This document shows, piece by piece, positions 672-32,000 of a stretch of DNA of 35,838 bases. The stretch spans positions 1 to 35,838 of the forward strand of contig JAZQGX010000297.1 of the NCBI GenBank assembly GCA_045540275.1, written 5' to 3'. The notes beneath the pieces were generated by a model, which did no database searches, was not told the origin of the DNA, and saw only the letters and a list, made by a program, of their open reading frames with translations. Each line of letters starts with the position of its first letter. Position 1 is the first letter of the stretch. This DNA comes from Kiritimatiellia bacterium (lineage in GTDB: Bacteria; Verrucomicrobiota; Kiritimatiellia; RFP12; UBA1067). The position numbers and the translations under genes were made by a program.

Positions 672-1116
672 CGAAGCGGGTTTTACGCTTATTGAAATTC
701 TCATCGCCACCATAATCCTCTCGATGGGATTGATGGCGCTGATGGGAGGCATGGGCAACTGTGCGCGAATGATGACATTGTCCAAACAGTTTCAGGATGC
801 GCAATTCGTCTTTTCGCTCGGCGACCGCCTTTACCCGGTTCCGCCCGCCGATGAAATCACCGAGCCTGAAGAGGACGAGCGGCTCAATATCGAAGAGGTG
901 AGCGCCGAGGAAATGATAGACGAGCTCGAGCTGGAGATGCCCAACAAAACCCGCCGTCTTTACGCCAATTACCGTTTTTCGCGTTCGGTTGACGAGAAGG
1001 AACTGGATGCGACCGATTTCGACGACGGCTTGTATGTGTTGCGCACCGTAATTGTCTGGGGAGACTCCGAAGAGGAGCGCGAGGAACTAGTCAGATTGAT
1101 CAGGAAGCGCCGTTAA
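637..1116 (+). CDS. GspI-like minor pseudopilin with a prepilin-type N-terminus
   Basis: MMRRIRTGTGISEAGFTLIEILIATIILSMGLMAL carries the G-FTLIE prepilin cleavage/methylation motif. The protein is about 160 aa. The ORF-track start at 562 overlaps the upstream gene, so I take the internal ATG at 637/640. Confidence 0.55.
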   Translation: MMRRIRTGTGISEAGFTLIEILIATIILSMGLMALMGGMGNCARMMTLSKQFQDAQFVFSLGDRLYPVPPADEITEPEEDERLNIEEVSAEEMIDELELEMPNKTRRLYANYRFSRSVDEKELDATDFDDGLYVLRTVIVWGDSEEEREELVRLIRKRR

Positions 1117-1117
1117 A

Positions 1118-3240: not shown

Positions 3241-3248
3241 GTTTTCAG

Positions 3249-5302: not shown

Positions 5303-5325
5303 TATCAGGAGTTTTCGAGAGGAGC

Positions 5326-17100: not shown

Positions 17101-17924
17101 AACCCGACAATGACTCCTTCCGCAATGGCCAGACGATATATATTTCTCCCGGCGACAACGCCAAGGAAAAAATTGAAAACAGCCCCGACTGGGCAACGAT
17201 ATTATTTGACAAGGGTGAATATGATTTGGGTTGGTTTAAGCTAAAGGGGAATAAGCGCATTCGAGGGAAGGGCATCGGTAAGACCATTATCAAAGGAAGG
17301 ATTAATTCCGGGAATGGAGGGAGTTATTTGATAGCGATGGATGCTACTTTTGTTATTGATAGCAGCACAAGTGGGAAATATCCAATTTGGGTGGATGAGT
17401 ACGGTAAAGCGGTGATAAAAAACTGTGGGCTAATCGGCGGAGGAATTTGGGCAAGCGATGGTAGCAAATGCGTTGTATCCCGTACCAATGTGAAAGATGC
17501 TTATGGCCGTGGAATTTCAATGGGCGATAATTCGAAAGTTTATGTTGCCGACTCAAAACTCAATGCTGCAAATGACAAATCGGCGGTATTGCATGGAGGA
17601 GCGCGAGTTGTAATGAAAAACACTCAGCTTTCTACGCAGAAACAAGATGAGAGTGTTTGTTATTTCGGATTTGAAAATACTGCTTTCTATTTAGAGAACT
17701 GCATATTAACAGGAGATGATAGAGGCATAGCTATAGGCAATGGCGCTAGCGGATGTCTTAAAAATGTTACCTTTCAACGATGCAAAGATAGTATAGAGAA
17801 TTATGGGGATATTGAACTATTTGGCAATACCTATCACGGTAATAAGTTCTCAAGTTCTTCCAAAGGCAAATATATCAATAAAGAGAACGGCAACTTTGAC
17901 GTAAATCCTAATTTCTTTAAATGA
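14157..17924 (+). CDS. Kinase 1: a Hanks-type Ser/Thr kinase with a TM helix, a coiled coil, about 12 Sel1 repeats and a C-terminal parallel beta-helix
   Basis: The kinase motifs are LGGGGFGSVYLARD, AIK, HRDVKPANVMI, DFGLA and GTRPYMAPEQ. The TM segment is IFAAVSIVALALGGAWYGW. The Sel1 repeats are units like AVKWYRKAAEKG...LG.MYE.G.GV.KD. The tail has PbH1-like turns (NCGLIGGGIWASDGSKCVV...GISMGDNSKVYVADSKL...GIAIGNGASGC). Confidence 0.85.
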   Translation: MSIEDSFDYNQTLTGLGKIDQYEILQELGGGGFGSVYLARDTTSRVLVAIKGLPPSVKNDNEDMENIRNNFTIVHDLHHPHIAAALVLHRANKVCYSKEEVRQKLRVLEGDPLLVMAYAPGVTLSKWRRQFPKNIVPTDQAIEIVKQIASALDYAHAEKVLHRDVKPANVMIETKADGSITARVLDFGLAAEIRSSLGRSAGQVHDTSGTRPYMAPEQWIGARQSSATDQYALAAMFYELITGEVPFASVFQTGDAIVMMNVVRGQNFVPPPDMPKNTAKALSKALSKDIDQRFPCCMDFVKALQGDFATTGRNSRTVVKESKPLPFARIFAAVSIVALALGGAWYGWMRYDQAAKARKLEEERLRGEVYDMQGRASQVRELNQSAVWKNWKHFQFHAKELESSYRAGEMALEKNDFNLAKVQFQKVREYWLLLSSNKADRAQALQKCEVVKVARRTAEKASAGVLASNDFAVAESIERNADELFENGLFNKAIAEYEQANAAFAKALKSAENENKRRIKAKIKADTEAALLAFNANPPRYIEGMKYSATADRENPDLQFHLARCYFHGYGGVAVNKPEAARWYLKSANQGCAEALVPIGLMYEKGDGVALNYAEAVKWYRKAAEKGDCSGENYLGEMYETGDGVAKDIAEAVKWYRKAAEKGFARGQLNLARMYAQGTGVEENQLEAASWFRKAAEQGEAKAQYLLGLMYAEGNAVAKDNKEAVSWFRKAAEQGDASAAFSLAIHCANGRGVDKDLAEAAKWYRKAANVGHAQAQRNLGMAYEEGAGVPKDAVEAFKWYYKSAEQGDKFAQFLVAYSYFKGQGVNENKTEAVKWYLKSAEQGVVSAQRNLGILYFEGQGVDKNYSEAVKWSRKAAEKGDAVSQSNLGWAYEHGNGIEQDYAEAAKWYRKAAEQGNGTAQCNLGDLYEKGKGVDKNMAEAMAWYQKAAKNGSVRAKERLSEFTSASDVDKRCREGITMLGLEPDNDSFRNGQTIYISPGDNAKEKIENSPDWATILFDKGEYDLGWFKLKGNKRIRGKGIGKTIIKGRINSGNGGSYLIAMDATFVIDSSTSGKYPIWVDEYGKAVIKNCGLIGGGIWASDGSKCVVSRTNVKDAYGRGISMGDNSKVYVADSKLNAANDKSAVLHGGARVVMKNTQLSTQKQDESVCYFGFENTAFYLENCILTGDDRGIAIGNGASGCLKNVTFQRCKDSIENYGDIELFGNTYHGNKFSSSSKGKYINKENGNFDVNPNFFK

Positions 17925-18013
17925 GCGTTATTACAATGATAAAAAATCAATCAGATGTAAATAAATATAAACAAATATAAACAAATACAATACTATGTAT
18001 CAAAAATAAACAG

Positions 18014-18042
18014 TTGACAATTGGTATAATTAATGATAATAT
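18014..18042 (+). promoter_or_regulatory. Candidate sigma70 promoter in an extremely AT-rich intergenic region
   Basis: TTGACA (18014-18019), a 17-nt spacer, then TAATAT (18037-18042) preceded by TG. The region 17925-18071 is about 20-25% GC with a tandem AAATATAAAC x2. It lies upstream of the HTH gene. Confidence 0.35.
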
Positions 18043-18404: not shown

Positions 18405-18480
18405 CTTTAAATGAGAGAGTCGCGGCATCTGATGATGCTGCAAATGTTGTTGGGTTAGGTAGAGCAATAAGGAGTTGGCA

Positions 18481-20268
18481 ATGGGAATCTTTTTCGATAT
18501 CTGTGATGCATTGATTGATCCTAGCACGGGACGCGCCTTGTCCGGCGAAGCACTTGAAAAAGCGATGGCCGATCGCAAATGGCCTCGTTGCGGAAACACA
18601 GTCAGTAAGCGTGCCCGCTTTTGCAATTCGTGCGGCAAACCGGCTCCCGGTGGATGGTGGAAGTGCCCGAATTGCAAAAAATGGATCGGCAACGATTCCC
18701 GCTTCTGTCCTCATTGCAACCAGCCGCTCTTTCCGGAAGAGCGTGCGGCGATTGCCGGCGGCGTCTGGTGCAAGGAACAGCGTTTCTTCGCACAGCGGTT
18801 TGAGGTGGGAGATATCAAGCGTCTCCTTTCCGACGGAATTTTAGTGCAGGAGGGGACCTTGGCGATTCTGCTCGACGCCGGGCAGATCCACGGCATCTTG
18901 GAACCCGGACGCCATAATCCTGATTCGCTTGCCCGTAAAATCAACTGGTTCGGTAATCCGCCGCCGCGCAGCGTGGTATTGGTGGACGCTGCGGAGATTG
19001 TCGTGCCTCTGCAGATTGAGGCGTTGCGCACCAGCGAACACTTCCCGATTGATTTTTACGGTGAAGTGATGCTCCGCTTCAAGGGCGACAAAGATGCGGC
19101 AAAAGCGTTTATCGGCAATATATTGGGTTCTGAACGCAGCTGCACCTTCAAGGAACTTTCTGACAATTTCATCCGTTCGGTTCGCATCGCCGTCGATGAA
19201 ATGGTCGTTGCCTCCACCATCGACGATTTGGTTCGCGATCCTGAACGCCGCATCCGATTGCAGGAGCGCATGAATGCCCGTCTTTCCGAAGATCTTGCCG
19301 CTTGCGGTTTGGAGCTTGTGCGGGTCTCTTCGGCGGAATTCACCGGTGAGCAATATGAAGAGTATGCCGAAAAACTGGGTAAGATCGATATTCAGCGGCG
19401 CGAACTTGAGTACAGTGCGGCATTGCGCAAGATGTTCGAAAGAGATTCGATGGCCCAGCACAAAGATGCCGACGCGCTTAAGCAATACAAGGAAATCGTC
19501 GACCACGAATACCGCATTTCCCGCGAGCGGCGCGATCACGAATTCAAACTGATTCAGCGCGAACACAGCCACGACGACATCGTCTATCAGCGTATGCTTG
19601 AAGTCGAAAATCTCGAACAGCAGCACAAGGTGGAAGACATCAAGCAGCACCACCAGCATGCGCAGGAATCGCGTCAGACCGAGCATGACATCTCAATCAA
19701 TTCGCGCATGGACGAATATGAGCGCGGCAAAAAGGTCGGGGACGCTCAGAGCGATGTGCAGGCGCAGGATATCCACACCCAGCAGGATGTTAAAGACGCC
19801 ATGGCGTGGCTCGACGTCAAAATGCGTAAAAACGCAATTAAACAACAGGACAAAGGACTAGACGCCGAACGCCGCAAGGGGATGTCCCCGCTTGAACTGC
19901 TCGCCGATATCGAAGATGCCCAGTTGCGCAATGATATTTTCGAGATGTACAAACTGCAGCTTCAGTCCGGAATGTCGCCCGAGCAGATCCTGGCGCAAAT
20001 GGGCAAGAGCCACTATGGACCGGAATACGAACAGTTCATGCAGAAAATGGCCGATCTCTACAAGGATAATTCCGACCGCGCCGAGCGCGGATTGGCAGGA
20101 CTCGTTTCCGCGCTTCGGGTGAACATCAACGGCTCTGTTTCGCAGGGCGCGCAGTACAATGTCGGAATCCACCAGCAGAATCACAACCAGAACTGCACGA
20201 GCATGAGCAACAGTCATTCTTCCTGGCAAAATATGAACAATTCGACTGAAGACAACAAGAATTCGTAA
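18481..20268 (+). CDS. Double zinc-ribbon plus SPFH/band-7 (flotillin/stomatin-like) domain protein with a long charged coiled-coil tail
   Basis: The N-terminus has CGNTV...CNSCG...CPNCKK...CPHC, which are two CxxC pairs twice. The middle region (GILVQEGTLAILLDAGQIHGILEPGRH...VVLVDAAEIVVPLQIEALRTSEHFPIDFYGEVMLRF...) has an SPFH-like pattern. The C-terminal ~250 aa are E/Q/H/K-rich heptad-like. AAGGAG lies 6 nt before the ATG at 18481. Confidence 0.65.
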   Translation: MGIFFDICDALIDPSTGRALSGEALEKAMADRKWPRCGNTVSKRARFCNSCGKPAPGGWWKCPNCKKWIGNDSRFCPHCNQPLFPEERAAIAGGVWCKEQRFFAQRFEVGDIKRLLSDGILVQEGTLAILLDAGQIHGILEPGRHNPDSLARKINWFGNPPPRSVVLVDAAEIVVPLQIEALRTSEHFPIDFYGEVMLRFKGDKDAAKAFIGNILGSERSCTFKELSDNFIRSVRIAVDEMVVASTIDDLVRDPERRIRLQERMNARLSEDLAACGLELVRVSSAEFTGEQYEEYAEKLGKIDIQRRELEYSAALRKMFERDSMAQHKDADALKQYKEIVDHEYRISRERRDHEFKLIQREHSHDDIVYQRMLEVENLEQQHKVEDIKQHHQHAQESRQTEHDISINSRMDEYERGKKVGDAQSDVQAQDIHTQQDVKDAMAWLDVKMRKNAIKQQDKGLDAERRKGMSPLELLADIEDAQLRNDIFEMYKLQLQSGMSPEQILAQMGKSHYGPEYEQFMQKMADLYKDNSDRAERGLAGLVSALRVNINGSVSQGAQYNVGIHQQNHNQNCTSMSNSHSSWQNMNNSTEDNKNS

Positions 20269-20280
20269 AAGTTTTTTCAA

Positions 20281-21801
20281 ATGAAGATCGTTTGTCCAAA
20301 TTGTGGAAAAAAAGTCGAGCACGGAAGGTTCTGCGAAAAATGCGGAAATCCTTTTGCCGCCGAATCGGATACTGGAAATGACCGTTCTTCGGAATGCCGG
20401 AGCTCTTTTGGCGAGGAGCCTACCCGCGGCGGCAGCGTCAATTCGGGCCAATCGGATTTTTCGCAGATGCCGATTTTGCATCAAGGTGATTGTTTTTCAA
20501 ATGTGCATGAGGGTTTGAAAAAGTCCCAGTCGGCCGGTGGAAATATCGCATTTCCGCAGACGGAAAACGCCACCTCGCTGTTTTTTTCCGATCAAAGCGG
20601 TCCTGAGTTGATGGTGGATCAGCTCTGCGTACAATTTGAGAATCTTTCCGGCATCGTGCGCTTCCTGTTCAATCCCGGGAATGCGCGAGACGGGCTGGAG
20701 AACATCGTGTTCAAATTTGAAAATCAGCTGACCGGGGAGTCTGTCTCGTCGCGCATGCTGCCGTTTCTCAATCGTTCGTGGGAGTTTTCTCTGCCGTTTC
20801 CCGCACAACGCGCCGGAGCAACGGTGTGGTCGGTTACCGGATTGTATGAGATTTCCGGCGTAAGGCACCAGATTGTGGGCGATATGCAGATGGTGGTTAT
20901 TCAACCTCGCGAAGCGCAGACCATCGCCGACAATCTTTGCATCAACATCAGCAACAACATCAACAACGGAAACGCCTCGGACGTCCATGTTTCGCAACGC
21001 GCGCTTGAGGATTTGACCAAGTTGGCCTCCGCGGAAAATCCTTTTGACGAACTTCGCCGCATCATATCAGGCAGGACTCGCTCATGGTGCGGATTGCCGC
21101 TGATCGACTCGAATACTTCCGGTCAAATGCCGCCGATGCCGCCACGGGCAAAAACGGAACGCATAACCCTGGATTTCGGCACTCATCGAGTCACTTTTCT
21201 TGGGGGGCGCACCATCCGCTTTGGACGAAACAGGGATGTAAACGACATTTCGCTGCGACCGGCGGCCTCCGCCACAGAAGATCAGAAGCGTCCGTATTGC
21301 ATGATTAGCCGCGCCCATTGCCACTTCGAACATCAGGGGCAGTCAGTTGTCATTTGCGACGGTCAGCGTGATGAGCGACAGGTGCTGGTGGCGTCAAGCG
21401 GCGGCACATTCTGGAATGGTGTCCGCATTGACGGTTCGATAAGGCTCAACGCGGGGGATCGGGGCGTGGTTTCATTTGCCGGCAGTTATAACGGCGCGAT
21501 CTCGCTTGACGTAAAGGTATGCAAATCGGCGGGGGATTGCAGTTCCTGTCCTCACGCGGGCAGACAATGGTGCGGAGACGGATTGCGCTCATCGCTCATG
21601 CTTACCCGCAGAGACGGCATACCGGAGAAATTCATTGCGGTCTGGAGCTGCTTCCGGTTGGAAGAGGCCGACCCGTCGTTTAACGGGGTTTTGATTTTCC
21701 GAAAAGACGGAGCCTTCGCCTGGCGGAAGGGGCGCAAGTGCGGATGGATTATTCCCGGGACATCGCAACAGACGGATTTTGGAACGGTAACTGTTAACTG
21801 A
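20281..21801 (+). CDS. Zinc-ribbon plus FHA-domain protein
   Basis: The N-terminus has CPNCGKKVEHGRFCEKCG. The FHA-like core is ITLDFGTHRVTFLGGRTIRFGRNRDVNDISL...MISRAHCHFEHQG..VVICDGQ...SSGGTFWNGVRIDG..RLNAGDRGVVSF, matching the G-R...SR.H......D.GS.NGT.vNG pattern. The middle ~250 aa and the Cys-rich C-terminus are unassigned. Confidence 0.55.
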   Translation: MKIVCPNCGKKVEHGRFCEKCGNPFAAESDTGNDRSSECRSSFGEEPTRGGSVNSGQSDFSQMPILHQGDCFSNVHEGLKKSQSAGGNIAFPQTENATSLFFSDQSGPELMVDQLCVQFENLSGIVRFLFNPGNARDGLENIVFKFENQLTGESVSSRMLPFLNRSWEFSLPFPAQRAGATVWSVTGLYEISGVRHQIVGDMQMVVIQPREAQTIADNLCINISNNINNGNASDVHVSQRALEDLTKLASAENPFDELRRIISGRTRSWCGLPLIDSNTSGQMPPMPPRAKTERITLDFGTHRVTFLGGRTIRFGRNRDVNDISLRPAASATEDQKRPYCMISRAHCHFEHQGQSVVICDGQRDERQVLVASSGGTFWNGVRIDGSIRLNAGDRGVVSFAGSYNGAISLDVKVCKSAGDCSSCPHAGRQWCGDGLRSSLMLTRRDGIPEKFIAVWSCFRLEEADPSFNGVLIFRKDGAFAWRKGRKCGWIIPGTSQQTDFGTVTVN

Positions 21802-21811
21802 GGAGGTAGAA

Positions 21812-22393
21812 ATGGGATTCCTGTTTTTTAAAAGCAAGCGTGAAAAAGAGCGTGCCGAACGCCGCGAACGCCGTCATGCGCTTCGCAAGGCCGAGAGTGC
21901 GGTCGATGAAGTGGTCTCGCGCATCAAAAGGATGGAAAAGGATGCCGACGCCGAATGGGAACGCGCCCGCGAAGCGACTAAAGAAGGCAAGCAGGCCGCG
22001 GCTCAGCGTGCTCTGACCAGTTATCGTTCGGCACAAGTGCTGGTTACCAAACTCGAGCAGAAAAAATGGGTCTTTAAGCAGGTTCTTATGAAACTTGAAA
22101 CCGCTGGAACCGACGCCGAGTTCGCCAAAGCGCTTGCGGCGGTCAACAGGGTTACCGATATCAATGTCGAGATGGTCGAAGACGTGTTTGACGAAGCCGG
22201 AGATCTTCTCGCCGAATCCGGCGACGTCGACAAGTTCTGGGCGCAGATGTACGGCAAGGAGGTCGAGGGTTCGAAAGTAGCGCTTCAAGACCATATTCCA
22301 TCAATGGAAGATTTGGAAAGGCATCTTCAGGAGGAAGTTGCAGGCAAAATTGCAAGCGGCATTTCACCGGAAGAGCTTGAGAAAGAGATTTAG
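21812..22393 (+). CDS. ESCRT-III (Snf7/CHMP/Vps2-like) family protein
   Basis: The product is 193 aa. It begins MGFLFF and has a basic N-terminal half (KSKREKERAERRERRHALRK) and an acidic C-terminal half. EATKEGKQAAAQRALTSYRSAQVLVTKLEQKK is colinear with the Vps2/CHMP2 alpha2 region (KMAKQGQMDAVRIMAKDLVRTRRYV). VNRVTDINVEMVEDVFDE...DLL matches the alpha4/alpha5 region. The C-terminal EDLERHLQEE is MIM1-like. GGAGG lies upstream of the ATG. Confidence 0.6.
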   Translation: MGFLFFKSKREKERAERRERRHALRKAESAVDEVVSRIKRMEKDADAEWERAREATKEGKQAAAQRALTSYRSAQVLVTKLEQKKWVFKQVLMKLETAGTDAEFAKALAAVNRVTDINVEMVEDVFDEAGDLLAESGDVDKFWAQMYGKEVEGSKVALQDHIPSMEDLERHLQEEVAGKIASGISPEELEKEI

Positions 22394-22467
22394 TTCATAA
22401 TCACTGCTGGTTCCGGCGTGAAAGCAGCTTGTGATGAGTTGTTATTTGATGATGCAAGAGGTGGATC

Positions 22468-23577
22468 ATGCAATCGATAGGCGATAAGAAGAACGATCGA
22501 ATGTCTGCTTGCCAGACGGCGATGAAGGCTCGTGATTACGCCGCTGCCGCCAAGGCTGCGGCAGATGTGGCTGATTGCGCTGAAATTCTCGCCTCTCGTA
22601 CGACCGGTGTCGTGGCCAAGGCGTATGCCCGGGAAATGGAATCATGGCGGTCGCTGGCGAACAGGCTTGAAGCGAGAAAAGCCTGCTCCGCACCTCGCGA
22701 TGACGCTCGCCCACAGGCGGCGCAGGTTATTGCAGATGGCGATGAATGGCTTGTCGGCGAGAAACCGGATGTGACCTTCGATGACATCGCGGGGATGGAA
22801 GAGGCAAAGCGCATTATCGACGAGATGGTGATCTACCCCATGAAGTCGCCGGATAAGGCTCGCGCTTTGGGGCTTAACCCCGGCGGCGGCGTTTTGCTCT
22901 TCGGCCCTCCCGGAACCGGCAAAACCATGCTCGGGAAAGCGATAGCAGGGGCTCTCAACGCACCGTTCTACTATGCTTCCGGTGCAGATTTGCGCTCTAA
23001 ATGGTACGGTGAATCAGAGCAGCGCCTGTCAAAACTTCTCAATGCCGCAAAGTCACAGCCGGTGGCGGTGTTGTTTCTTGATGAAATCGAATCGCTGCTT
23101 CCGAAACGCACCGAATCATCGCACGCTGCCGACAATCGGGTGGTGACGCAATTTCTTTCCGATATCGGTGGGTTTGATGGATCGGAGAATCTGCTTCTGA
23201 TTCTCGGAGCGACCAATAAGCCGTGGAATATCGACGAAGCGGTTTTTCGTACCGGGCGTTTCGACGAAAAGATTTATGTCGCACCGCCGGATGCCGCCGC
23301 CAGACTCAAAATTCTGGAGTTGAACATCGCCGGGGCGCAGCTCGGTCCGGAAGTCGATTTAAACGAAATCGCCAAAGCGATGGAAGGGGCGTCGGGCTCG
23401 GATGTGTCGGCAGTAGTTTCCGCGGCCAAGCGTTCGGCATTGGCTCGCGCAATCCGGGAGGACAGCGATCCGGTTATCTGCAAAGAGGATTTGCAAGCGG
23501 CGCGTGAGCGTATTCCGCTTAGCATCACCGGTGAAATACTTGAGCCTTATGAGCGGTTTATGAAGGAGCGGCTTTGA
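22468..23577 (+). CDS. Vps4-like meiotic-clade AAA+ ATPase with an MIT-like N-terminal three-helix region
   Basis: Walker A is VLLFGPPGTGKTMLGKAIA. The diagnostic SKWYGESE(Q) corresponds to the Vps4/katanin/spastin SKW(V/L)GESEK. Walker B is VLFLDEIESL. LGATNKPWNIDEAVFRTGRFDEKIYVAPPD and ...MEGASGSDVSAVV are present. The C-terminal helix EDLQAARERIPLSITGEILEPYERFMKE resembles the Vps4 C-terminus. The N-terminus has the MIT-like helices AAAAKAAADVADCAEILASR...AKAYAREMESWRSLANRLE. Confidence 0.8.
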   Translation: MQSIGDKKNDRMSACQTAMKARDYAAAAKAAADVADCAEILASRTTGVVAKAYAREMESWRSLANRLEARKACSAPRDDARPQAAQVIADGDEWLVGEKPDVTFDDIAGMEEAKRIIDEMVIYPMKSPDKARALGLNPGGGVLLFGPPGTGKTMLGKAIAGALNAPFYYASGADLRSKWYGESEQRLSKLLNAAKSQPVAVLFLDEIESLLPKRTESSHAADNRVVTQFLSDIGGFDGSENLLLILGATNKPWNIDEAVFRTGRFDEKIYVAPPDAAARLKILELNIAGAQLGPEVDLNEIAKAMEGASGSDVSAVVSAAKRSALARAIREDSDPVICKEDLQAARERIPLSITGEILEPYERFMKERL

Positions 23578-24482
23578 AACCTGTATGTTGCAAGTGCGGA
23601 AAAACCCTGCCCAATCGCTGGGCGGTTGGCAAGCGGGTGGTGGTCGACGGAGTTGAACAGTGCTATTGCCATTTGCATGCGGTCGATAAGCGAGGCGAAC
23701 AGATGGCAACCGGCAGAGCAATGAAGAGAGAGGAGGTTGTCGCGATGAGTGACAATGAACAAAATGACAAATCCGGCACTCGGGAGGAAGAATTGACGAA
23801 AAACGCCTCAGGGGAGCTTGTTAAAAAGGCCTGGGGCGAGTGCTCGTCGCTTGTTTCAAAACTGGGCGGCGGTATTAAGGTTGTATGGGCAAAAATACAC
23901 CCCGACCGTTCGCCGGAGGCGATGCTGTCGAGCCTCGACGGCGATTTGGCGGAAAACCGGCGCAGGCTGGCAGAAATCAAGCCCGAGCTGGATCGAGCCT
24001 ATCGCGATATCGTCGCCGGGAAAAAGGATTACCTGTCGGCGCCACCGGCGCGTCAGCGTATTCTTAAAATCGAGTTGCAGAGCCTGTTGGCACGCTATAA
24101 ATCACTCGAACGTGAGTTCGGGATTCTTTGCGAAAACGAACGATCCATCGAGATGGTCCGCGGCAGATTTCTTGAGGTGCTTGCGCACGGTATGCGCGGC
24201 AAACTCAACGTCGATACCGTTGACCGCCTGACCGACAGCATCGAGGAGCAGGTCGATGAGGCCGAGGATGTGCAGGACGCGCTGTCAGATCTCGAGCGCG
24301 CCGGCAAAAGAAGCGAACGAGATACTGGAGATTTTGATTCGGAACTCGCCGATTTTGACGGCGAACTGGGTTTGGTCGAAGATGTTAAAAAGGAGGAGAA
24401 AAATGAAGAAAAGAACAATATTGATATCGTCACTGATAAGCGCGGTACTGCTCTCGAGGAATCTGACGGCGGGATTGCGTGA
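23574..24482 (+). CDS. Zinc-ribbon plus ESCRT-III/PspA-superfamily-like coiled-coil protein with an acidic MIM-like tail
   Basis: It has a TTG start that overlaps the Vps4-like stop by 4 nt (TTGA). The N-terminus has CCKCGK...CYCHLH. The central helices are LSSLDGDLAENRRRLAEIKPELDRAYRDIVAGKKDYLSAPPARQRILKIELQSLLARYKSLEREFGIL. The C-terminus has DEAEDVQDALSDLERAGKR, which resembles the Vps2 MIM1 DLEERLKNLRR, then DFDSELADFDGELGLVEDV. The fold assignment is tentative. Confidence 0.4.
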   Translation: MKPVCCKCGKTLPNRWAVGKRVVVDGVEQCYCHLHAVDKRGEQMATGRAMKREEVVAMSDNEQNDKSGTREEELTKNASGELVKKAWGECSSLVSKLGGGIKVVWAKIHPDRSPEAMLSSLDGDLAENRRRLAEIKPELDRAYRDIVAGKKDYLSAPPARQRILKIELQSLLARYKSLEREFGILCENERSIEMVRGRFLEVLAHGMRGKLNVDTVDRLTDSIEEQVDEAEDVQDALSDLERAGKRSERDTGDFDSELADFDGELGLVEDVKKEEKNEEKNNIDIVTDKRGTALEESDGGIA

Positions 24483-25623: not shown

Positions 25624-25651
25624 CGTTGCATGAAGTTGAATGGAGAACATC

Positions 25652-26413
25652 ATGAAAAAAAGTATTTTTGCGATTTTTGCCGCTGCTCTGATCTCGGGAT
25701 GCGTAACCCATCTGGCCGATCCGGAGGTCAAGACCTACGTCAACGGTACAGTGCAGCCGCTTCGTGTGCTGGTATCGATTGATGGCGGCAAAGACCAATC
25801 CAGCGCGTCGTATCAGCTCAGCGGCTACCTTCAGTCGCATCTTGAAAGCGCATTGGCCGCTGCGGGCTATCGCGTAGTCTATGAAGGGAACCATGAAATC
25901 CTCGTTTCGACTTGCGGTCAGGTGACGTGTCAGGAAAGAAATAAGCGCGGAACCCGTTCGGTGTACTATGGCGATGCGGATGTCCAGGTGACCCGTGCGG
26001 CATTTGAAAACACCATGCGCAACGAGACGATGCGCGATATTGTCGCCCGTCAGCGTTTCGATGTTCAGGGCGGACAGGCGCGTACGCCGACCGAGGCAAT
26101 CAAATCGGTGGCGGATACGCTCGCTCCTGAGCTTTCGAAGTGGACGGCCGCCTCGGTGACCAAAGTTGCCTCGAAGCTGGAATGCTGCCAGGTCACTATC
26201 AGCAACGCATGGACATATCGCGGCGAAGAGGACTACCCATCCCGTTTTACCGCTACGGTTAACCGGATGCGCGGCATCTACAGCTGCCGCATTCTCTCCA
26301 CTGACAACGTAAACCGTTCGTTTCGCGCTGAGATCATCTACGACCGTGATATGTATCCCGACGGCATCGTAAACGGTCTTATCGCCACCAGCGGCCTCAA
26401 TCTCTACCGATAA
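25652..26413 (+). CDS. Predicted lipoprotein (function unknown)
   Basis: MKKSIFAIFAAALISGC has a lipobox (LISGC). No recognisable domain is present. Confidence 0.5.
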   Translation: MKKSIFAIFAAALISGCVTHLADPEVKTYVNGTVQPLRVLVSIDGGKDQSSASYQLSGYLQSHLESALAAAGYRVVYEGNHEILVSTCGQVTCQERNKRGTRSVYYGDADVQVTRAAFENTMRNETMRDIVARQRFDVQGGQARTPTEAIKSVADTLAPELSKWTAASVTKVASKLECCQVTISNAWTYRGEEDYPSRFTATVNRMRGIYSCRILSTDNVNRSFRAEIIYDRDMYPDGIVNGLIATSGLNLYR

Positions 26414-27137: not shown

Positions 27138-28178
27138 ATGAGCAGAATGGATGCCATTCGCAAGCAATACGAACAAAATTCCGATGGCGATGGACTTCAA
27201 CGTCCGAATTATCGCGTTCACCCCGCACGCTCACGCAATCTAGTATTCAAGTTCTTTTGGCTGATGCTGATTTTGTCGGTGCTGGGAGGCTTTTTCAGCG
27301 CAAAGAATAAAATAATTCCTTTTTTTAAGGGGGCGTTCGGTATCGGATCTCAGCCCACTCCTCATAGCCAGAGTATGGGAAAGGACCTTGGCACTCATCA
27401 GGGCGCCAGGGAAGTTGAGGTTTCAAAGCAGGCGCTCTCTCAGTACTTGCAGCCGACGAAAGCCGAGATGGAGCAACTTTTCGAATATGTGCGCAATTCG
27501 TCGCATGTTAAAGAAAACTTGCTTTATGCCAAAACCATGCAGGAGTGCCGCTTTTTGTATTTGCCGGACAATGAAACCGTAAATGCGCTCGCCGGTTTGC
27601 ATAAATTGGATAAGGACAGCGAGAAGTTGACGCGTGTTGTCTGTTTTCTGGGCGGTGCAGCCCGTTTTGCCCGTGTCGCCGCACTTGCCGGTGCGGCTGA
27701 GCAATGTGGCGACAAGGGGGCGGGTGCGCGTTTTTTGCGGGCCTGCACGGCGGCAGACTGTGGAAAGATGGATGCCGACGCTGCACTCCGGATTGTGAAT
27801 GAAGCTTGTTTGGGGGGCGTGCTTAACAATCAGATTGCGTTGACGAAGGCAAAATCCATTTCGGCCGGCCTGATGCTCGGCATTATCGCTCATGAGTGCG
27901 GTCACCAGAGTCTTGGTCATGTGCTCAAGACCGGTGAAACCGTCAATCTTGATATTTCGCGCAATCAGGAGCGGGAGGCGGATTCGTTTGCCTCTTCAGT
28001 AATATCTTCCAGTCCGTTTGGTGAATACATTCTGGCGGGTACGCTCTTTTGGTACTATGCGCTTGCCAATCAGCAGCGTGATTCGAACGAAACGACACAT
28101 CCGTTGGCAAAAGAACGCTTTGAAAATTATGTCCGGTCCAACAAGGCGTTGGCGGCATCACTTGGCATCAGACTGTGA
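27138..28178 (+). CDS. Membrane-anchored HExxH zinc-metallopeptidase-like protein, paralog A
   Basis: The N-terminal TM segment is LVFKFFWLMLILSVLGGFF. The motif IAHECGHQSLGHV is HExxH plus a downstream H. The C-terminus has QEREADSFASSVI...SPFGEYILAGTLFWYYALANQ...TTHPLAKERFENYVRSN. Confidence 0.5.
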   Translation: MSRMDAIRKQYEQNSDGDGLQRPNYRVHPARSRNLVFKFFWLMLILSVLGGFFSAKNKIIPFFKGAFGIGSQPTPHSQSMGKDLGTHQGAREVEVSKQALSQYLQPTKAEMEQLFEYVRNSSHVKENLLYAKTMQECRFLYLPDNETVNALAGLHKLDKDSEKLTRVVCFLGGAARFARVAALAGAAEQCGDKGAGARFLRACTAADCGKMDADAALRIVNEACLGGVLNNQIALTKAKSISAGLMLGIIAHECGHQSLGHVLKTGETVNLDISRNQEREADSFASSVISSSPFGEYILAGTLFWYYALANQQRDSNETTHPLAKERFENYVRSNKALAASLGIRL

Positions 28179-28193
28179 AACGAGGTGGCAGCA

Positions 28194-29054
28194 ATGGGAA
28201 GATTGGAAGATTTTAGAGCGCGCACGCGCATGCGCGCTTTGTCGCTATCGGATGGTGGATCCGGCGGGCTGTTCAACGGCCAAGCCGCCGGCATGAAAGA
28301 AGATTCCGAGCAGGAATTGATTGCGTATCTAAATCCCGACGGAACCGAAATCAGCCAATGGTGGTCGATGCTGGTGCAGTCGCCCTATCTGCACACCAAT
28401 CTTTCCTATGCCAATTCGCTTCAGCGCACAAAATTCTTCTATGACGTCGACAATAATCAGATAAATGCGTTCGCATGCTGTGAAGATGAGCAGGCATCCG
28501 GTTTTCGCATCTGTTTTCTTGGAGGGCTGATGCGTTTTTCCCGTCTTGCATCACTGGCGGCGGCTGCGGATATGTGCGGCCGCCCCGGCACTGCCGGCCG
28601 ATTCGCCCAGTCATTCGACCGATACGGCGGACTTTCTCAGAACGAAGCGCTGGAGGAGATGGAGAATCTTGGCTTGGCTTCGGTTTATCATCTGCCCGGG
28701 GTGAAAAGTAAGGCGTTGGCGATTTCATCGGGGATGATAATTTCGATTCTCGCCCATGAGATGGGCCATATCTGCTTGGGTCACGTTCAAGGTCCGACCT
28801 ATTACAATTCTAACCATGAAATTTCACGGAATCGTGAACGCGAGGCTGATTCGTTTGCCTCGACAATAACTGCCGCAAGCCCTTTTGGTGAGTATATGCT
28901 GGTCGGGATTTTGTTTTGGGCGTATGCAATGGCGCAGCAGGAAAAGGGAATGACGGCGACGACCCATCCGCTATCGATTGAACGTTTTAACAACTTTGTT
29001 AGATCAAATTCATCACTTGCCTCGACTTTTGGTTTGGTTGAATTTAACGATTGA
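28194..29054 (+). CDS. HExxH zinc-metallopeptidase-like protein, paralog B (tandem duplicate of 27138-28178)
   Basis: LAHEMGHICLGHV...REREADSFASTITAASPFGEYMLVGILFWAYAMAQQ...TTHPLSIERFNNFVRSN is colinear with paralog A. It has no N-terminal TM segment. The ATG at 28194 follows GAGGTGG. Confidence 0.5.
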   Translation: MGRLEDFRARTRMRALSLSDGGSGGLFNGQAAGMKEDSEQELIAYLNPDGTEISQWWSMLVQSPYLHTNLSYANSLQRTKFFYDVDNNQINAFACCEDEQASGFRICFLGGLMRFSRLASLAAAADMCGRPGTAGRFAQSFDRYGGLSQNEALEEMENLGLASVYHLPGVKSKALAISSGMIISILAHEMGHICLGHVQGPTYYNSNHEISRNREREADSFASTITAASPFGEYMLVGILFWAYAMAQQEKGMTATTHPLSIERFNNFVRSNSSLASTFGLVEFND

Positions 29055-29071
29055 CCGCTAGATATCCTACC

Positions 29072-32000
29072 ATGAACAAGAATTCAATTAATAACGATAT
29101 TACGATAACTGAGGAGGGTGAGCATCCTCGTGAAGGGGATGGTAATCGTCCTCGCGCTTGGGAGGGCGAGCATCCTCGTGCTTGGGAGGGCGAGCGTCCC
29201 CGCGAGCCGTTATCGATGAACAATGCGGTAACGTTGCGTCCTCAAGCGGGCGCATCGCTCGGTCGTATCGACCAATATGAGCTTATCCGCGAGCTTGGCG
29301 GAGGTGGATTCGGTTGCGTGTATCTCGCACGCGACACGGTTGCCGGGATTGAGGTCGCGGTAAAGGGCTTGCCTCCGCTCGTTCGGCTCAATAAGGAAGA
29401 GCTTGAAAATGTCCGAAAGAATTTCGCTTTAGTTTCGCGACTTCATCATCCGAATATTGCGGCGGCGCTTCATCTGCAGAAGGTTGAAAAGGCTTTTTAC
29501 GACGACAAGGCTGATGCTGAAAAACTGCGCGTCTTTAATGGTGACACTCTCGTTGTAATGCAGTACGCGCCAGGCGTCACGCTCTCGCAATGGCGTAAGC
29601 AGTTCCCTGACGGCAAGGTGCCGTTGGATAAGGCGCTCGAAATTGTGCGGCAGATTGCGTCCGCGCTCGATTACGCGCATAAAGAGAAGATTCTTCATCG
29701 TGACATCAAGCCAGCGAACGTGATGATTGAAACATTACCTGACGGCTCGATTGCGGCACACGTTCTTGACTTTGGGCTTGCCGCCGAAATTCGCTCCTCA
29801 ATGAGCCGCGTCTCGCGTGAAGTAACTGATACGTCGGGTACGCGACCTTATATGGCGCCGGAACAGTGGGGCGGACGGAAACAAGGCAAGGAAACTGATT
29901 TATATTCTCTTGCAGTTCTTTTTTATGAACTCGTTACAGGAGAGGTGCCGTTTGCATCTGTATTTGATACGGGTGATTCAGTACTCATGATGAATGTGAT
30001 TGAGACTAAGAATCCAGAATTTTCATCTGAACTGCCAAAGCCCATCCGCCTTGCACTCACCAAGGCCTTGTCCAAAAAGCGCGAAGACCGCTTCGGTTCA
30101 TGCTCAGAGTTCGTTGACGCGCTACAGGGCGGGCGTATATCAGGAGGGCGAGCGTCCTCGCGAGCCACCGTTATCCTCACCGCCCTTGCATCCCTTTGCC
30201 TCGCTGTCGGCGGCGTTTGGTATTGGCAAGAAGCGAAGGCGAAAGAGGAGGCTCGAATCGTCGCCGAGCAAAAAGCCGAGGCGGAACGAAAGGCTGCCGA
30301 AGAAGCGCGGCGTATAGCCGAGGAGAAAGCCAAGAAAGAGAAGGCTGAAACGGAGCGAAAGCAAAAAGAGGAAGCGGCACGGATAGCCGCCGAGAAGGCA
30401 AAGGCTGAAGCCGAAGAACGAGCTCGAAAGACAGAAGCGGTACGCATCGCGGCCGAGAAGGATGCGGAACGCAAAGCTGAACTCGAAGTGTTTCGACTTT
30501 CTTCTAAAGCACAAAGTGCACATGATCTTATCGATGGCGAGTCGTCTGAGATAAAGGAGTTTTTCGCAAAGGAAATCCGTGCCTTTGAGAATGATCGCCG
30601 AGCAGGTGATGACGCCAAGCAAAATTCAAAGTATGTAGTTGCAACGAATTTCTATGCGCAAGCGTTGATGGCTGCGACTGCGCTTAAGGTGTCGGTAGCG
30701 AATTATCGCGAGTGTAAGGAGTTGTTGCCGAAAATTGAACGTGCCAAGGAACGTGCCGATGAAGTGAATGCGGCAGGATCGTTGCCAAGCGGGTACAGGG
30801 CGGCGCAAAATGCCCATAGCGCAGCTTTAGATGCATTAAAACAAAAGCGTTTTGATGAAAGCAAGGCCAAGATGCAAGAGGCGGAGAAGCTTTTTGTATC
30901 TTTGCGAAACGATGTCATCAATGCAGTTCTTGATTTGGCGGAAGGGCACAAGACGGCAGCGCGTTGGGAGCTTTGCAAACAAGAGGCGGATAAGGTGCTT
31001 AAGTGGGAAAGCGGGAATGCAAAAGCGATTGCGCTTAAAGAGGTTGCGCAAAAAAGTCTCATGCCGTCGCTGAAAATTGTTGCGCAGATTGACGGAGAGG
31101 AGATTGACGGAGTTACGATAAAAATTGGCGACAAAGAATATGCAACTCCCTATGTAATGCAAAATTTGAAGAAGGGTGATCTTATCGGTCCTTGTGATGT
31201 TGCATATATGCGCAATGGCAAGAACTATGTCGGTACTTTCTCACAGGTAAGTGTAGATTGGCTTGGTGCTAAAGTGCTTGCAGTTGCGCTTAAGGAGCAT
31301 GCTGGCCTGCAGGCCGGAGATGTTAAGGCCATTACACTTCCTGGCGGTGTTGCAATGGTGATGGTTTATGTTGCTCCCGGATCGTTTATGATGGGAAGCC
31401 CGGAAACGGAAGAGGGGCGATACAATAATGAGACGCAGCATCGCGTTACATTAACTGAAGGATACTGGATTGGCAAGTATCCGGTAACTCAAGCGCAATG
31501 GTCGGCACTCGTAAGTGCGAATAATGTTTCATTCGATAATGGTGCTCCGGTTGCATGGTTTAGTTCTAAACGTGGAGGTGCTGATGATTTTCCGATGGAG
31601 AATATCAGCTGGGATGATTGCTACAGATTGATAAAAGCTTTGAACGCCAATGAATCGACACATAGAAGATGGATGCTGCCGACTGAGGCGCAATGGGAAT
31701 TTGCGGCAAGGGGAGGCACGAAGTCTAAAGGATATAAGTATAGTGGAAGCGATATTTTGAGTGAGGTTGGTTGGTATGACAAGAATTCTGGACATAGGAC
31801 CCATTCTGTTTCTGCGAAAAATAGAGGTAATGAGTTGGGCATTGTCGGTATGAGCGGCAATGTGTGGGAGCTGTGCCAGGACTGGTATGGTAACGATTAT
31901 TATGCAACAAGTCCACACCTGAATCCTATAGGCCCAGCTTCGGGTGATAAACGTGTCTTGCGCGGGGGTAGCTGGATGCACGATGCTCGGGATTGTCGCT

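Follow-up and report, generated by a model that had tools for sequence, protein, structure and literature searches.

Whether a bacterium can pair a Snf7-type ESCRT-III protein with a Vps4-like AAA ATPase is the question raised by three adjacent genes in a 35,838-nt stretch of DNA (hereafter, the window) from a gut bacterium of the class Kiritimatiellia. According to recent surveys and reviews, this pairing, which cuts and repairs membranes, is found only in archaea and eukaryotes. The initial annotation had read the three genes as an ESCRT-III/Vps4 module, and all three open reading frames were found at the positions and on the strand given there (Table 1). As had been described, the start of the 302-aa gene overlaps the stop codon of the ATPase gene (cTTTGAaa, sharing TTGA), with a ribosome-binding site (AAGGAG) 8 nt upstream, and the three genes are translationally coupled. 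The operon is conserved, and on balance the locus probably encodes bacterial machinery of the ESCRT-III/Vps4 type that remodels or repairs membranes. The best reading is a phospho-regulated ESCRT-III/Vps4-like membrane-remodelling system, which would place the pairing in a bacterium. The observation of a three-gene module and the core of its interpretation stand, whereas the ATPase clade, the MIT domain and the second ESCRT-III-like protein have weaker evidence than was claimed.

Table 1. Features of the module and its flanks, with positions in the window.
Feature	Position	Strand	Details
Ser/Thr protein kinase with Sel1 repeats and beta-helix domain	14157..17924	+	Pfam Pkinase E=9e-41; 11 Sel1 repeats; upstream flank
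Candidate sigma-70-like promoter	18014..18042	+	TTGACA-17-TAATAT, extended -10 TG; 10/12 matches
SPFH/Band-7 protein with N-terminal double zinc ribbon and long charged coiled-coil tail	18475..20268	+	597 aa; Pfam Band_7 E=1e-9, DZR E=7.5e-8
Zinc-ribbon + FHA protein	20281..21801	+	506 aa; Pfam FHA E=9e-7, residues 312-394
ORF 1, Snf7-family ESCRT-III protein	21812..22393	+	193 aa; N-terminus MGFLFF
ORF 2, single-cassette classical AAA ATPase	22468..23577	+	369 aa
ORF 3, zinc ribbon + predicted ESCRT-III-like helical hairpin + acidic disordered tail	23574..24482	+	302 aa; TTG start
Exported protein with signal peptide and C-terminal TM helix	24403..25623	+	~406 aa; RBS AAGGAGGAG, then ATG at 24403
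Lipoprotein	25640..26413	+	257 aa; weak Pfam LPAM_1 E=0.0034, 18.2 bits (cut-off 20)
Membrane-anchored M48-like HExxH metallopeptidase, first of two tandem paralogues	27138..28178	+	346 aa; Pfam Peptidase_M48 E=1.9e-4
Second M48-like metallopeptidase	28185..29054	+	289 aa; Pfam Peptidase_M48 E=2.8e-7
Ser/Thr kinase with FGE-sulfatase-type domain	29051..32638	+	1195 aa; Pfam Pkinase E=9e-42, FGE-sulfatase E=1e-41; downstream flank

On its profile matches, the 193-aa protein belongs to the Snf7 family and not to PspA. Snf7 was its sole significant Pfam family (E=4e-5; 23.8 bits, 3.5 bits short of the gathering cut-off of 27.3 bits), and no PspA_IM30 signal was found in Pfam or profile searches. 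The majority of its close homologues have a precomputed PF03357 match, and one is labelled 'Snf7 family protein' by NCBI. Orthologues with 41–55% identity match Pfam Snf7 over nearly the full length of the profile (E values of 1.9e-4 to 2.8e-6), and one of them (L012; 41% identity) exceeds the gathering cut-off with 27.6 bits. When a profile of the family that included the distant orthologues (A6) was compared with the PDB, the top four matches were all yeast Snf7 (best E=8.7e-4). The nearest structural family is Snf7/CHMP4, not Vps2/CHMP2, with which its alpha2 region had initially been aligned by eye. The charge asymmetry typical of ESCRT-III was borne out, with a net charge of +10 in residues 1–96 and −16 in residues 97–193. 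In addition to its N-terminal hydrophobic motif, the protein has a conserved C-terminal helix (PSMEDLExxLQEEVA). Its tail contains no recognisable canonical MIM1 or MIM2, a difference from the crenarchaeal CdvB/CdvC and eukaryotic Snf7/Vps4 systems.

The ATPase has Walker A (GPPGTGKT at 146) and Walker B (204–206) motifs and matches Pfam AAA (E=8e-38) and AAA_lid_3. Its pore-loop motif SKWYGESE (177–184; SKWMGESE in yeast Vps4) agrees with the earlier assignment to the Vps4/meiotic clade. However, its second region of homology and arginine-finger region (FRTGRFDEKIYV) contains FRTGRFD, which is of the Cdc48/PAN/FtsH type (RRRF in yeast Vps4), and neither Pfam Vps4_C nor Pfam MIT matched the window protein. 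The NCBIfam CdvC profile (NF041006) aligns residues 36–366 with positions 40–366 of 370 at 202 bits, far under the equivalog cut-off of 650 bits, and the scores for PAN, CDC48 and CdvC are similar, all far under their cut-offs. The ratio of CdvC to CDC48 bit scores is 0.97, compared with 1.03 for yeast Vps4 and 0.55 for p97 D2, and in this profile of family scores the ATPase resembles Vps4 and not Cdc48 D2. The best raw PDB sequence match is p97 D2 (183 bits, 36% identity), and the 38% identity to yeast Vps4 is confined to the large AAA domain. The ATPase does not group with FtsH, ClpX or CbbX. In a rough neighbor-joining tree, it falls in a clade of its own (B) together with other AAA proteins that have MIT-like N-termini. 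This clade joined Vps4 in 98 of 200 bootstraps (49%) and was separate from Cdc48 D1/D2 in 167 of 200. The AF2 model, which is mediocre (pLDDT 68) and gave uninformative Foldseek matches, consists of a three-helix MIT-like N-domain (4–71), a disordered linker (72–96), the AAA core, the lid and a C-terminal helix (355–368). The three-helix prediction is of moderate confidence; relatives' N-domains match Pfam MIT weakly (best E=8e-4), and an N-domain profile weakly reaches the MIT structure of Sulfolobus Vps4 (2w2u). The C-terminal helix, described initially as Vps4-type, is present but not diagnostic, because it aligns with the end of p97/Cdc48 D2 as well.

For the 302-aa protein, the features noted at the outset were all recovered: the zinc ribbon as a zinc-ribbon-like Cys/His motif at the N-terminus, the helical hairpin as long helices, and the acidic tail as a C-terminal part with a net charge of −18. 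An ESCRT-III-like hairpin (114–155/158–207) is confidently predicted in its AF2 model (mean pLDDT 78; 96–98 over the hairpin), followed by helices at 213–244 and 251–260. This architecture fits a second ESCRT-III-like protein, but the sequence and fold matches are all sub-threshold, and homology to ESCRT-III lies below significance. The best Foldseek match in the PDB is Asgard ESCRT-IIIB (E=0.045), among fold matches that are inseparable from generic coiled-coil hairpins; 12 of the 30 family members have sub-threshold Pfam Snf7 matches, and hhalign found no profile-profile similarity between the 302-aa and 193-aa families.

The module extends beyond 21812–24482: its conserved neighbourhood also includes the upstream genes for the SPFH–zinc-ribbon and FHA–zinc-ribbon proteins (18475–21801) and the flanking kinase and peptidase genes. 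Of the module's genes, Snf7 is the best conserved across loci, with 77–87% identity, compared with 66–75% for the AAA ATPase, 34–62% for the 302-aa protein and 30–61% for the SPFH and FHA proteins. The SPFH gene lies upstream of Snf7 in most of the Kiritimatiellia loci whose sequence extends to that point (44–60% identity), with 33% identity in the variant loci L006/L010 and 41% in L042/L043. The FHA gene is located directly 5' of Snf7 with a 10-nt gap, and its product, a candidate phospho-threonine-dependent adaptor, retains 24% identity (E=7e-17) in L042/L043. In L001, L005, L014, L015, L019, L020, L027, L029 and L033, a homologue of the upstream kinase gene either follows Snf7 immediately or separates it from the AAA gene. 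L042 has, upstream of the module, a homologue of the downstream kinase that carries zinc ribbons itself. Downstream, the gene for the exported protein, which had no Pfam match, starts 80 nt within the 302-aa ORF and is kept in L004, L005, L007, L008, L021 and L026. The lipoprotein gene is kept in L004, L005, L007 and L008, and L042 has a 24% identical homologue. The region's best sigma-70-like match, a consensus match only, is located in low-GC intergenic DNA before the SPFH gene (GC is 0.408 across 17001–18000) and is a candidate start of the operon.

In the preferred reading, the Snf7-family protein would insert its N-terminal hydrophobic motif into the inner membrane at the cytoplasmic face and polymerise, with the divergent zinc-ribbon 302-aa protein as its probable co-polymer partner. 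The hexameric AAA ATPase would use its helical MIT-like N-domain to dock on the acidic C-terminal tails and would thread subunits through the KWYG pore, such that the polymer is remodelled or recycled. A scaffold or microdomain in the membrane may be provided by the SPFH–zinc-ribbon protein, assembly may depend on phosphorylation through the FHA protein and the Ser/Thr kinases on either side, and the M48-like peptidases may clear extracted proteins. The analysis itself shows which families the proteins belong to, how their domains are arranged, that the genes are translationally coupled and that their pairing is conserved; polymerisation, the N-domain/tail interaction and ATP-driven disassembly are steps that we infer, and the process served may be repair, vesiculation or division.

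A parallel is provided by the euryarchaeal ESCRT systems, which combine Vps4, ESCRT-III and accessory genes and include the groups 'Main', 'Halo_FHA' and 'Meth_adaptin' (Makarova et al., 2024; PMC10936438). As in those systems, the ESCRT-III gene adjoins a gene for a single-cassette MIT-type AAA ATPase, and the accessory genes mirror theirs, with SPFH (plus coiled coil and zinc ribbon), other zinc-ribbon fusions, an FHA protein and Ser/Thr kinases, as well as a phosphatase in L042. Vps4 was recognised in that study by ESCRT genes in the neighbourhood and a MIT N-domain; the window ATPase has both, its MIT-like N-domain being weakly supported. Unlike the euryarchaeal systems, the window module has an RxGRF-type second region of homology in its ATPase, M48-like peptidases, envelope lipoproteins and an N-terminal zinc ribbon on the second ESCRT-III-like protein, and it yielded no component of the winged-helix (ESCRT-II-like), adaptin-like or CdvA-like kind. 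With CdvB/CdvC and Snf7(CHMP4)/Vps4, it shares a Snf7-family subunit with a basic N-terminal half, an acidic C-terminal half and an N-terminal hydrophobic motif. The ATPase is similar in length to crenarchaeal CdvC (about 370 aa) and collinear with it, and shares with CdvC and Vps4 a KW-hydrophobic-G pore loop and a conserved operon, but it lacks their beta-domain and RRRF arginine fingers. Bacterial Vps4-like ATPases transferred from archaea, e.g., Opitutus ACB74714.1, have been reported (Ravi et al., 2024; PMC11237479). These are likewise Vps4-like classical AAA proteins of PVC-group and other bacteria with a proposed near-membrane action. In their operons, however, snf7 is reportedly replaced by a gene for a TPR+6TM protein, whereas here the Snf7-family gene is kept beside the ATPase. 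The module has the same composition as its flanks; its horizontal acquisition from archaea is possible and unsupported.

Alternatively, the locus may serve membrane-protein quality control as an HflK/C-FtsH-type system split over several genes, in which SPFH builds a cage in the membrane and the AAA ATPase pulls out damaged membrane proteins for degradation by the M48-like peptidases, with the Snf7-like protein as an adaptor or membrane stabiliser and not the main substrate. The combination of SPFH protein, AAA ATPase and two HExxH peptidases in one co-directional cluster recalls HflK/C-FtsH, and the RxGRF-type second region of homology and the C-terminal helix are shared with Cdc48/p97/VAT. 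Moreover, a related protein (P0299) fuses MIT-like–AAA–AAA to a C-terminal peptidase domain with 32% identity (E=1.5e-8) to the first window peptidase, and another (P0272; 58% identity in the AAA part) is membrane-anchored as FtsH is. However, the window peptidases are M48-like and encoded separately, in contrast to the fused M41 domain of FtsH-type proteins, and they are missing or distant in several loci. The ATPase differs from Cdc48/p97 in having one AAA cassette and no double-psi-barrel N-domain, and its helical MIT-like N-domain is of the kind that binds ESCRT-III tails, unlike that of FtsH or Cdc48. Given also that Snf7 is better conserved than any other gene of the module and that the smallest unit to be conserved consists of the Snf7 and AAA genes, which have neither SPFH nor peptidase genes nearby (L011/L012 and L035), quality control is a fairly unlikely explanation.

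It is also improbable that the locus is a passive envelope-stress system like PspA, in which the Snf7-family protein would coat damaged membrane and the AAA ATPase would be only a chaperone or regulator of its solubility, without scission or turnover. [quoted passage not shown] Ravi et al. (2024; PMC11237479) link PspA/Vipp1 (IM30) loci to Band-7/SPFH proteins and, in some cases, to AAA+ ATPases, and envelope proteins (lipoprotein, exported proteins) are encoded downstream in the window operon. Against this, the 193-aa protein is of the Snf7 type, PspA systems lack a Vps4-type ATPase (PMC7619361), and PspF is a bEBP-type AAA+ transcription factor unrelated to the window ATPase, whose pore loops are of the substrate-threading kind and whose N-domain is of the recruitment type. 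The second ESCRT-III-like paralogue also suggests composite polymers such as those of archaeal and eukaryotic systems.

An anti-phage or abortive-infection module, with kinase/FHA signalling that triggers a membrane-active effector, is very unlikely. Ser/Thr kinases, FHA, AAA ATPase and Lit/U41-like peptidase similarities do occur together, PADLOC gave matches to IetA (110 bits) and Lit/peptidase_U41 (E about 1e-5), and the genes that lie between Snf7 and AAA differ among loci. However, these matches reflect generic family similarity and are much weaker than the CdvC, CDC48 and PAN scores, and no defence-specific component was found in the module. In contrast to patchy defence islands, the module occurs in practically every relative sampled, and Snf7 is under strong purifying selection. 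The composition shows no anomaly.

As the initial annotation had anticipated for a genuine ESCRT-III/Vps4-like pair, the pairing is shared with related genomes. Snf7 and AAA genes occur together in every Kiritimatiellia locus long enough for both. The pairing is found in many Kiritimatiellia from ruminant guts and in two more divergent lineages. In L011/L012 the two genes overlap by 4 nt (41% identity for Snf7, 44% for AAA), and in L035 their order is reversed, 21 nt apart. A chance adjacency of a generic coiled-coil protein and an unrelated housekeeping AAA ATPase is strongly disfavoured and hardly credible, even though the 193-aa protein is under the Pfam cut-off and helical proteins easily collect weak profile matches, given the independent Snf7 matches in Pfam and the PDB profile search and a pairing kept at 41–54% identity in three arrangements. 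In addition, relatives with tandem MIT-like AAA architecture adjoin small helical proteins, one of which has a weak Snf7 match, and the locus of one relative (P0256, L013) includes a Band_7_1+DZR (SPFH + zinc ribbon) protein as well.

The three open reading frames (ORFs) that the initial annotation proposed as an ESCRT-III/Vps4 module are present in the window, which is from a member of the Kiritimatiellia (PVC group), but the cluster to which they belong is larger than described and includes SPFH and FHA genes, downstream genes, and kinases. From 14157 to 35497, every gene is encoded on the + strand. The SPFH, FHA, and Snf7-like genes are separated by 12 and 10 nt, respectively. Moreover, the TTG start of the 302-aa ORF overlaps the TGA of the ATPase gene, such that the coupling noted earlier is real. 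The downstream gene for an exported protein appears to start at the ATG at 24403, as judged from the strong AAGGAGGAG site ahead of it; the listed 455-aa ORF, with a start at 24256, probably extends too far upstream. The ATG falls 80 nt inside the 302-aa ORF, in its poorly conserved, disordered tail. Among the envelope genes that follow downstream, the 222-aa protein with LA_2272-family repeats is conserved. Three large Ser/Thr kinases are encoded within 21 kb.

Coordinates of features in the window and in the related loci (L012 to L042) used for comparison.
Feature	Sequence	Coordinates	Strand	Remarks
Type II secretion/type IV pilus-like gene set	Window	562-8088		Two prepilin-type N-methylation proteins, T2SS-K-like protein, PilN-domain protein, 929-aa secretin
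Sugar-utilization pair	Window	8286-9974		
765-aa ORF	Window	9971-12268		
Ser/Thr kinase	Window	14157-17924	+	11 Sel1 repeats and beta-helix; flanks cluster
Best promoter-like site	Window	18014-18042		Low-GC spacer
SPFH/Band-7 protein	Window	18475-20268	+	Double zinc ribbon, long coiled-coil tail
Zinc-ribbon and FHA protein	Window	20281-21801	+	
193-aa ORF	Window	21812-22393	+	Starts MGFLFF; GAGGAGG ribosome-binding site
ATPase ORF	Window	22468-23577	+	369 aa
302-aa ORF	Window	23574-24482	+	TTG start; AAGGAG site upstream
Exported protein	Window	Start 24403	+	Downstream of 302-aa ORF
Lipoprotein gene	Window		+	Downstream envelope set, after exported protein
222-aa protein	Window	26443-27111	+	LA_2272-family surface repeats (NCBIfam E = 1e-14); similar to VC2662 family
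Two tandem M48-like HExxH peptidases	Window	27138-29054	+	
Ser/Thr kinases	Window	29051-32638 and 33410-35497	+	Flank cluster; two kinases carry FGE-sulfatase-type fusions
Snf7 ortholog with extra MIM1-like C-terminal helix	L012	3551-4207		SDLRSRARRIIDG
Snf7 ortholog with extra MIM1-like C-terminal helix	L034	1496-2119		KKRISEGRNRVKKLLDD
Snf7 ortholog with extra MIM1-like C-terminal helix	L035	805-1476		LANRITNAKQRVDKILRDG
Peptidase fusion P0299	L037	10611-10985		Gene-fusion link to window 27138-29054
ATPase relative P0272	L039	470-2560		696 aa
Metallophos-type phosphatase	L042	10806-11672		Right after Snf7 gene

By its sequence, the 193-aa protein belongs to the Snf7 family of ESCRT-III proteins. 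Pfam Snf7 (PF03357) was the sole significant family (E = 4e-5); the score of 23.8 bits falls 3.5 bits short of the curated gathering cut-off of 27.3. Precomputed PF03357 matches are present in most of its close homologs, one of which is titled "Snf7 family protein" by NCBI. The divergent orthologs on metagenome contigs span the Snf7 profile almost entirely, including those of L012 (41% identity; 27.6 bits, over the cut-off), L035 (48% identity; 25.8 bits, E = 9e-6), and L034/L042 (about 54% identity; E = 2e-4, with 21.6 bits for L034). Searches of the PDB with the single sequence or with a shallow family profile (A1) returned nothing relevant, and Snf7 structures were matched only once three divergent orthologs had joined the profile (A6). 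With A6, yeast Snf7 provided the best four matches (E = 8.7e-4 to 0.018) and Asgard ESCRT-IIIB came next; the alignment to the Snf7 core structures spans up to residues 20-183. The nearest family is Snf7/CHMP4 instead of the Vps2/CHMP2 family that had been suggested from an alignment by eye.

The charge asymmetry reported for this protein holds, with a net charge of +10 over residues 1-96 and -16 over residues 97-193. The N-terminal MGFLFF is unvarying within the family, and the distant orthologs retain M-[GS]-x-L-F-K; this hydrophobic stretch is a putative membrane-insertion motif. A C-terminal helix, PS[MVIL][DE]xLxxxLxxE[VA]A (PSxExLxxxLxxEVA), is kept in all Snf7 lineages. At their very end, the distant orthologs have one more helix, basic and amphipathic (RNRVKKLLDD, KQRVDKILRDG), which is MIM1-like, whereas the window protein ends with LEKEI and is without this helix. 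Inspection revealed no exact match to the MIM1 or MIM2 consensus. Across loci L001-L010 and L014-L036, identity to the window proteins is 77-87% for Snf7, compared to 66-75% for the ATPase, 34-62% for the 302-aa protein, 33-60% for the SPFH protein, and 30-61% for the FHA protein. That Snf7 is conserved far beyond every neighbor suggests an unusually strong constraint on this small helical protein.

The ATPase resembles Vps4 in its architecture and context and is a candidate member of the Vps4 clade. Its single AAA cassette is of the classical type (Pfam AAA, E = 8e-38) and is accompanied by AAA_lid_3; the Walker A motif GPPGTGKT is at 146 and the Walker B DE at 205-206. The pore loop SKWYGESE reported for this protein is found at 177, and its counterpart in yeast Vps4 (the sequence used for comparison being 100% identical to PDB 5uie_A) is SKWMGESE. 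AlphaFold2 predicts three N-terminal helices (residues 4-20, 24-44, and 48-71; pLDDT 74-83) followed by a disordered linker, such that the three-helix part of the proposed MIT-like region stands as a prediction, but Pfam MIT did not match the window protein. Among the homologous N-domains of its relatives, two of eight are matched by Pfam MIT (best E = 8e-4). In the PDB, the N-domain profile recovered TPR/Sel1 proteins and weakly matched the Sulfolobus Vps4 MIT structure 2w2u (E = 0.23). At the other end of the protein, the C-terminal helix described before is predicted at residues 355-368, but it is not specific to Vps4 given that the end of p97 D2 aligns equally well. Vps4_C (PF09336) had no match to the window ATPase at E ≤ 1; the alignment to yeast Vps4 ends at residue 351, ahead of the beta-domain, and the window ATPase is without this domain. 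Vps4_C is matched in P0256, one of the relatives with tandem AAA domains and an MIT-like N-domain. The arginine-finger region is FRTGRFDEKIYVAPPD (also given as FRTGRFDEKIYV) in the window ATPase and AIRRRFERRIYIPLPD in yeast 5uie_A. The RxGRF form of the former is that of p97 D1/D2, Cdc48, PAN, and FtsH, and the adjacent arginine fingers RRRFxxRIYIPLP of yeast Vps4 are not found in the window ATPase.

Profile scores also bear on the claim that this ATPase belongs to the meiotic or Vps4 clade. The NCBIfam CdvC model aligns with residues 36-366 at profile positions 40-366 of 370, whereas the PAN, CDC48, and FtsH models span the ATPase core only. The CdvC score of the window ATPase (202 bits) is under the equivalog cut-off of 650, for which yeast Vps4 itself reaches only 244. 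The CdvC and CDC48 scores are 202 and 208 bits for the window ATPase, 244 and 238 for yeast Vps4, 181 and 193 for the relative P0284, 230 and 231 for the N-terminal half of P0256, and 209 and 381 for p97 D2. Judged from these scores, the pattern of the window ATPase appears Vps4-like and unlike that of p97 D2. In pairwise phmmer comparisons, the window ATPase scored 183 bits with p97 D2, 165.5 with yeast Vps4, and 163 with p97 D1. An identity as Cdc48, p97, or VAT was rejected because the ATPase has one cassette and a helical N-domain, not two cassettes and a double-psi-barrel; its 208 bits with the CDC48 model (TIGR01243) also fall short of the cut-off of 803. The search against a representative library was swamped by multi-cassette AAA proteins, since domain scores add up, and it served only to pick the relatives P0284, P0256, P0272, P0271, P0299, and P0283. 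The AlphaFold2 model of the ATPase was poor (pLDDT 68, from a shallow alignment) and thus unusable for a fold-based clade assignment; Foldseek matched it only to p97 chains (TM about 0.35).

In a neighbor-joining tree of 66 AAA domains (255 columns, 200 bootstraps), in which Vps4 is represented by the yeast protein, the window family forms a clade with P0272 and P0284 (199/200). This clade groups with the tandem AAA proteins that have an MIT-like N-domain (167/200), apart from Cdc48 D1/D2. The combined group unites with yeast Vps4 in 98/200 replicates, and the window clade alone does so in 2/200. The clade assignment made in the initial annotation is tentative. The C-terminal AAA part of P0272 shares 58% identity with the window ATPase. 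P0272 has a hydrophobic N-terminus, with several apparent transmembrane segments as judged by eye, and then about 300 residues of unknown fold in place of the MIT-like domain.

For the third protein, the predicted architecture agrees with the zinc ribbon, helical hairpin, and acidic tail described before. In the AlphaFold2 model, 155 residues are above pLDDT 90. Residues 1-36 form a small zinc-ribbon-like beta unit, in which C5, C8, and C32 are invariant and H35 is nearly so. Three short helices connect to a hairpin of 42 and 50 residues (114-155 and 158-207; pLDDT 96-98), which is followed by helices 213-244 and 251-260 and then a disordered acidic tail (net charge -18 over 208-302). Although this architecture stands, comparisons by sequence and by fold gave no significant match for the designation as a second ESCRT-III-like protein. 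Among the Foldseek PDB matches, the filament subunit of Asgard ESCRT-IIIB ranked first (E = 0.045, probability 0.85) and Vipp1/PspA recurred, with no match reaching significance. Pfam Snf7 matched the window protein at E = 0.025 and was the commonest weak match of the family, being found in the alpha3-alpha4 region of 12 of 30 members (best E = 0.0036). The hhalign comparison with the Snf7 family detected no likeness (probability <1%), and a PDB profile search with the 302-aa family returned nothing significant; aligned with the 214-aa protein of L012, the family gave a weak in-register alignment. Given the matches below significance and the null hhalign result, the reading as a second ESCRT-III-like subunit is kept at plausible.

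The Snf7 and ATPase genes are found together in every Kiritimatiellia-family locus that is long enough, among 10 species-level genomes and 23 metagenome loci, such that the neighborhood is conserved. The contig scans used specific peptide patterns and recovered mainly the same family. The usual gene order is SPFH with zinc ribbon, FHA with zinc ribbon, Snf7, AAA, and the 302-aa protein. In a variant arrangement, a paralog of the last gene is located upstream, and some loci also have an M48 gene there. A Ser/Thr kinase gene intervenes between Snf7 and the ATPase in some loci, and kinase paralogs are repeatedly found beside or inside the module. In the divergent loci L011/L012, the Snf7 gene runs into the start of an ATPase gene with 44% identity (BLAST); in L035, the order is reversed, with the ATPase followed by Snf7 after 21 nt. 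The L042/L043 lineage (GC 38%) has a kinase, a lipoprotein, an SPFH-DZR protein (41%), a homolog of the FHA gene (24%, E = 7e-17) in which Pfam recorded no FHA domain, and Snf7 (about 55%), and the contig stops before any ATPase position. A phosphatase gene lies right after Snf7 in this lineage, which together with the kinase gives a complete set of kinase, FHA-gene homolog, and phosphatase around the module. In L013, helical proteins of 206 and 197 aa (starting with MWFFKSR and MGIFMSK, respectively) are encoded beside a tandem ATPase relative and a Band_7+DZR gene, and profile A6 has a weak in-register alignment with the 197-aa protein (hhalign). In L037, a 217-aa neighbor of a tandem ATPase relative matches Snf7 at E = 0.02.

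These findings suggest that the locus is probably an ESCRT-III/Vps4-type module for membrane remodeling or repair under phospho-regulation. The family assignments, the architecture, the translational coupling, and the conserved linkage are shown by these data. Beyond them, the ESCRT-III proteins may polymerize, the N-domain of the ATPase may be recruited to their tails, and ATP may drive their turnover, with a presumed physiological role in such remodeling or repair. A more far-reaching proposal, which we regard as possible but doubtful, is that Kiritimatiellia and some other uncultured bacteria own a complete phospho-regulated ESCRT machinery for ATP-driven scission of reverse topology. Such machinery would comprise an SPFH scaffold, an FHA adaptor, two ESCRT-III paralogs, and a Vps4-type disassemblase, and the scission could serve to bud vesicles, to mend membranes, or to carry out one stage of cell division.

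The main alternative is a quality-control machine similar to HflK/C-FtsH. It would account for the combination of SPFH, AAA, and peptidase genes, as well as for P0299, in which the ATPase is fused to a C-terminal peptidase domain with 32% identity (E = 1.5e-8) to the first M48-like gene of the window. The fusion points to a functional link between the ATPase clade and the M48-like peptidase. However, this alternative leaves unexplained why Snf7 and AAA are the minimal and most conserved unit, and we consider it unlikely. A passive, PspA-like stabilizer with a chaperone ATPase is quite unlikely, and this reading was dropped because neither the 193-aa nor the 302-aa protein had a match to PspA_IM30 (PF04012) at E ≤ 1 in the Pfam search. 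A defense module is very improbable; PADLOC reported only generic AAA (IetA, 110 bits; TRIP13) and HExxH-peptidase similarities. Chance adjacency of Snf7 and the ATPase, which recur together across the loci compared, is the least probable of these explanations. As for the origin of the ESCRT-III/Vps4-type module, recent horizontal transfer has no compositional support since the composition of the module equals that of its flanks; the module may be ancient or derived from inter-domain transfer.

The Vps4-ESCRT-III partnership is said to be absent from bacteria in several sources, including Makarova et al. (PMC10936438), and according to a 2025 review (PMC7619361), such an ATPase of the Vps4 type "appears absent in bacteria", leaving the regulation of bacterial ESCRT-III polymers open. 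Archaeal-type Vps4-like ATPases from several bacterial phyla were described by Ravi et al. (2024; PMC11237479), with snf7 gone and a TPR+6TM gene present instead. The authors also remarked briefly that AAA+ ATPases are occasionally tied to some Snf7-clade proteins of bacteria. Given this precedent and the NCBI label, the surprise is real but not absolute. Full-text literature searches found no description of this bacterial operon. What is new here is an ESCRT-III/Vps4-like bacterial system with a Cdc48-type arginine-finger region (SRH), a candidate second subunit fused to a zinc ribbon, and attached peptidases. The accessory set is strikingly similar to that of euryarchaeal ESCRT variants, which have FHA proteins, Ser/Thr kinases, phosphatases, and an SPFH protein that carries a coiled coil and a zinc ribbon (Makarova et al., PMC10936438). 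In the operon, bacteria offer a tangible setting in which ATP-driven turnover of ESCRT-III can be put to the test, and its small proteins, from abundant rumen bacteria, are offered for reconstitution. If the complete machinery is true, the ESCRT-III/Vps4 partnership would not be an archaeal-eukaryotic invention, and would either be older than the bacterial-archaeal split or have moved between domains as a working module. The operon also bears on whether Vps4 had a single origin from Cdc48 in archaea, and on how SPFH proteins and phospho-signaling joined ESCRT.

Outside of the cluster, the window contains a type II secretion/type IV pilus-like gene set, and a 765-aa ORF without a Pfam match follows a small sugar-utilization pair of D-lyxose isomerase (E = 3e-97) and PfkB-family sugar kinase genes. 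The species-level relatives are ruminant-gut MAGs, and the close homologs are named Kiritimatiellia or Kiritimatiellae bacterium.
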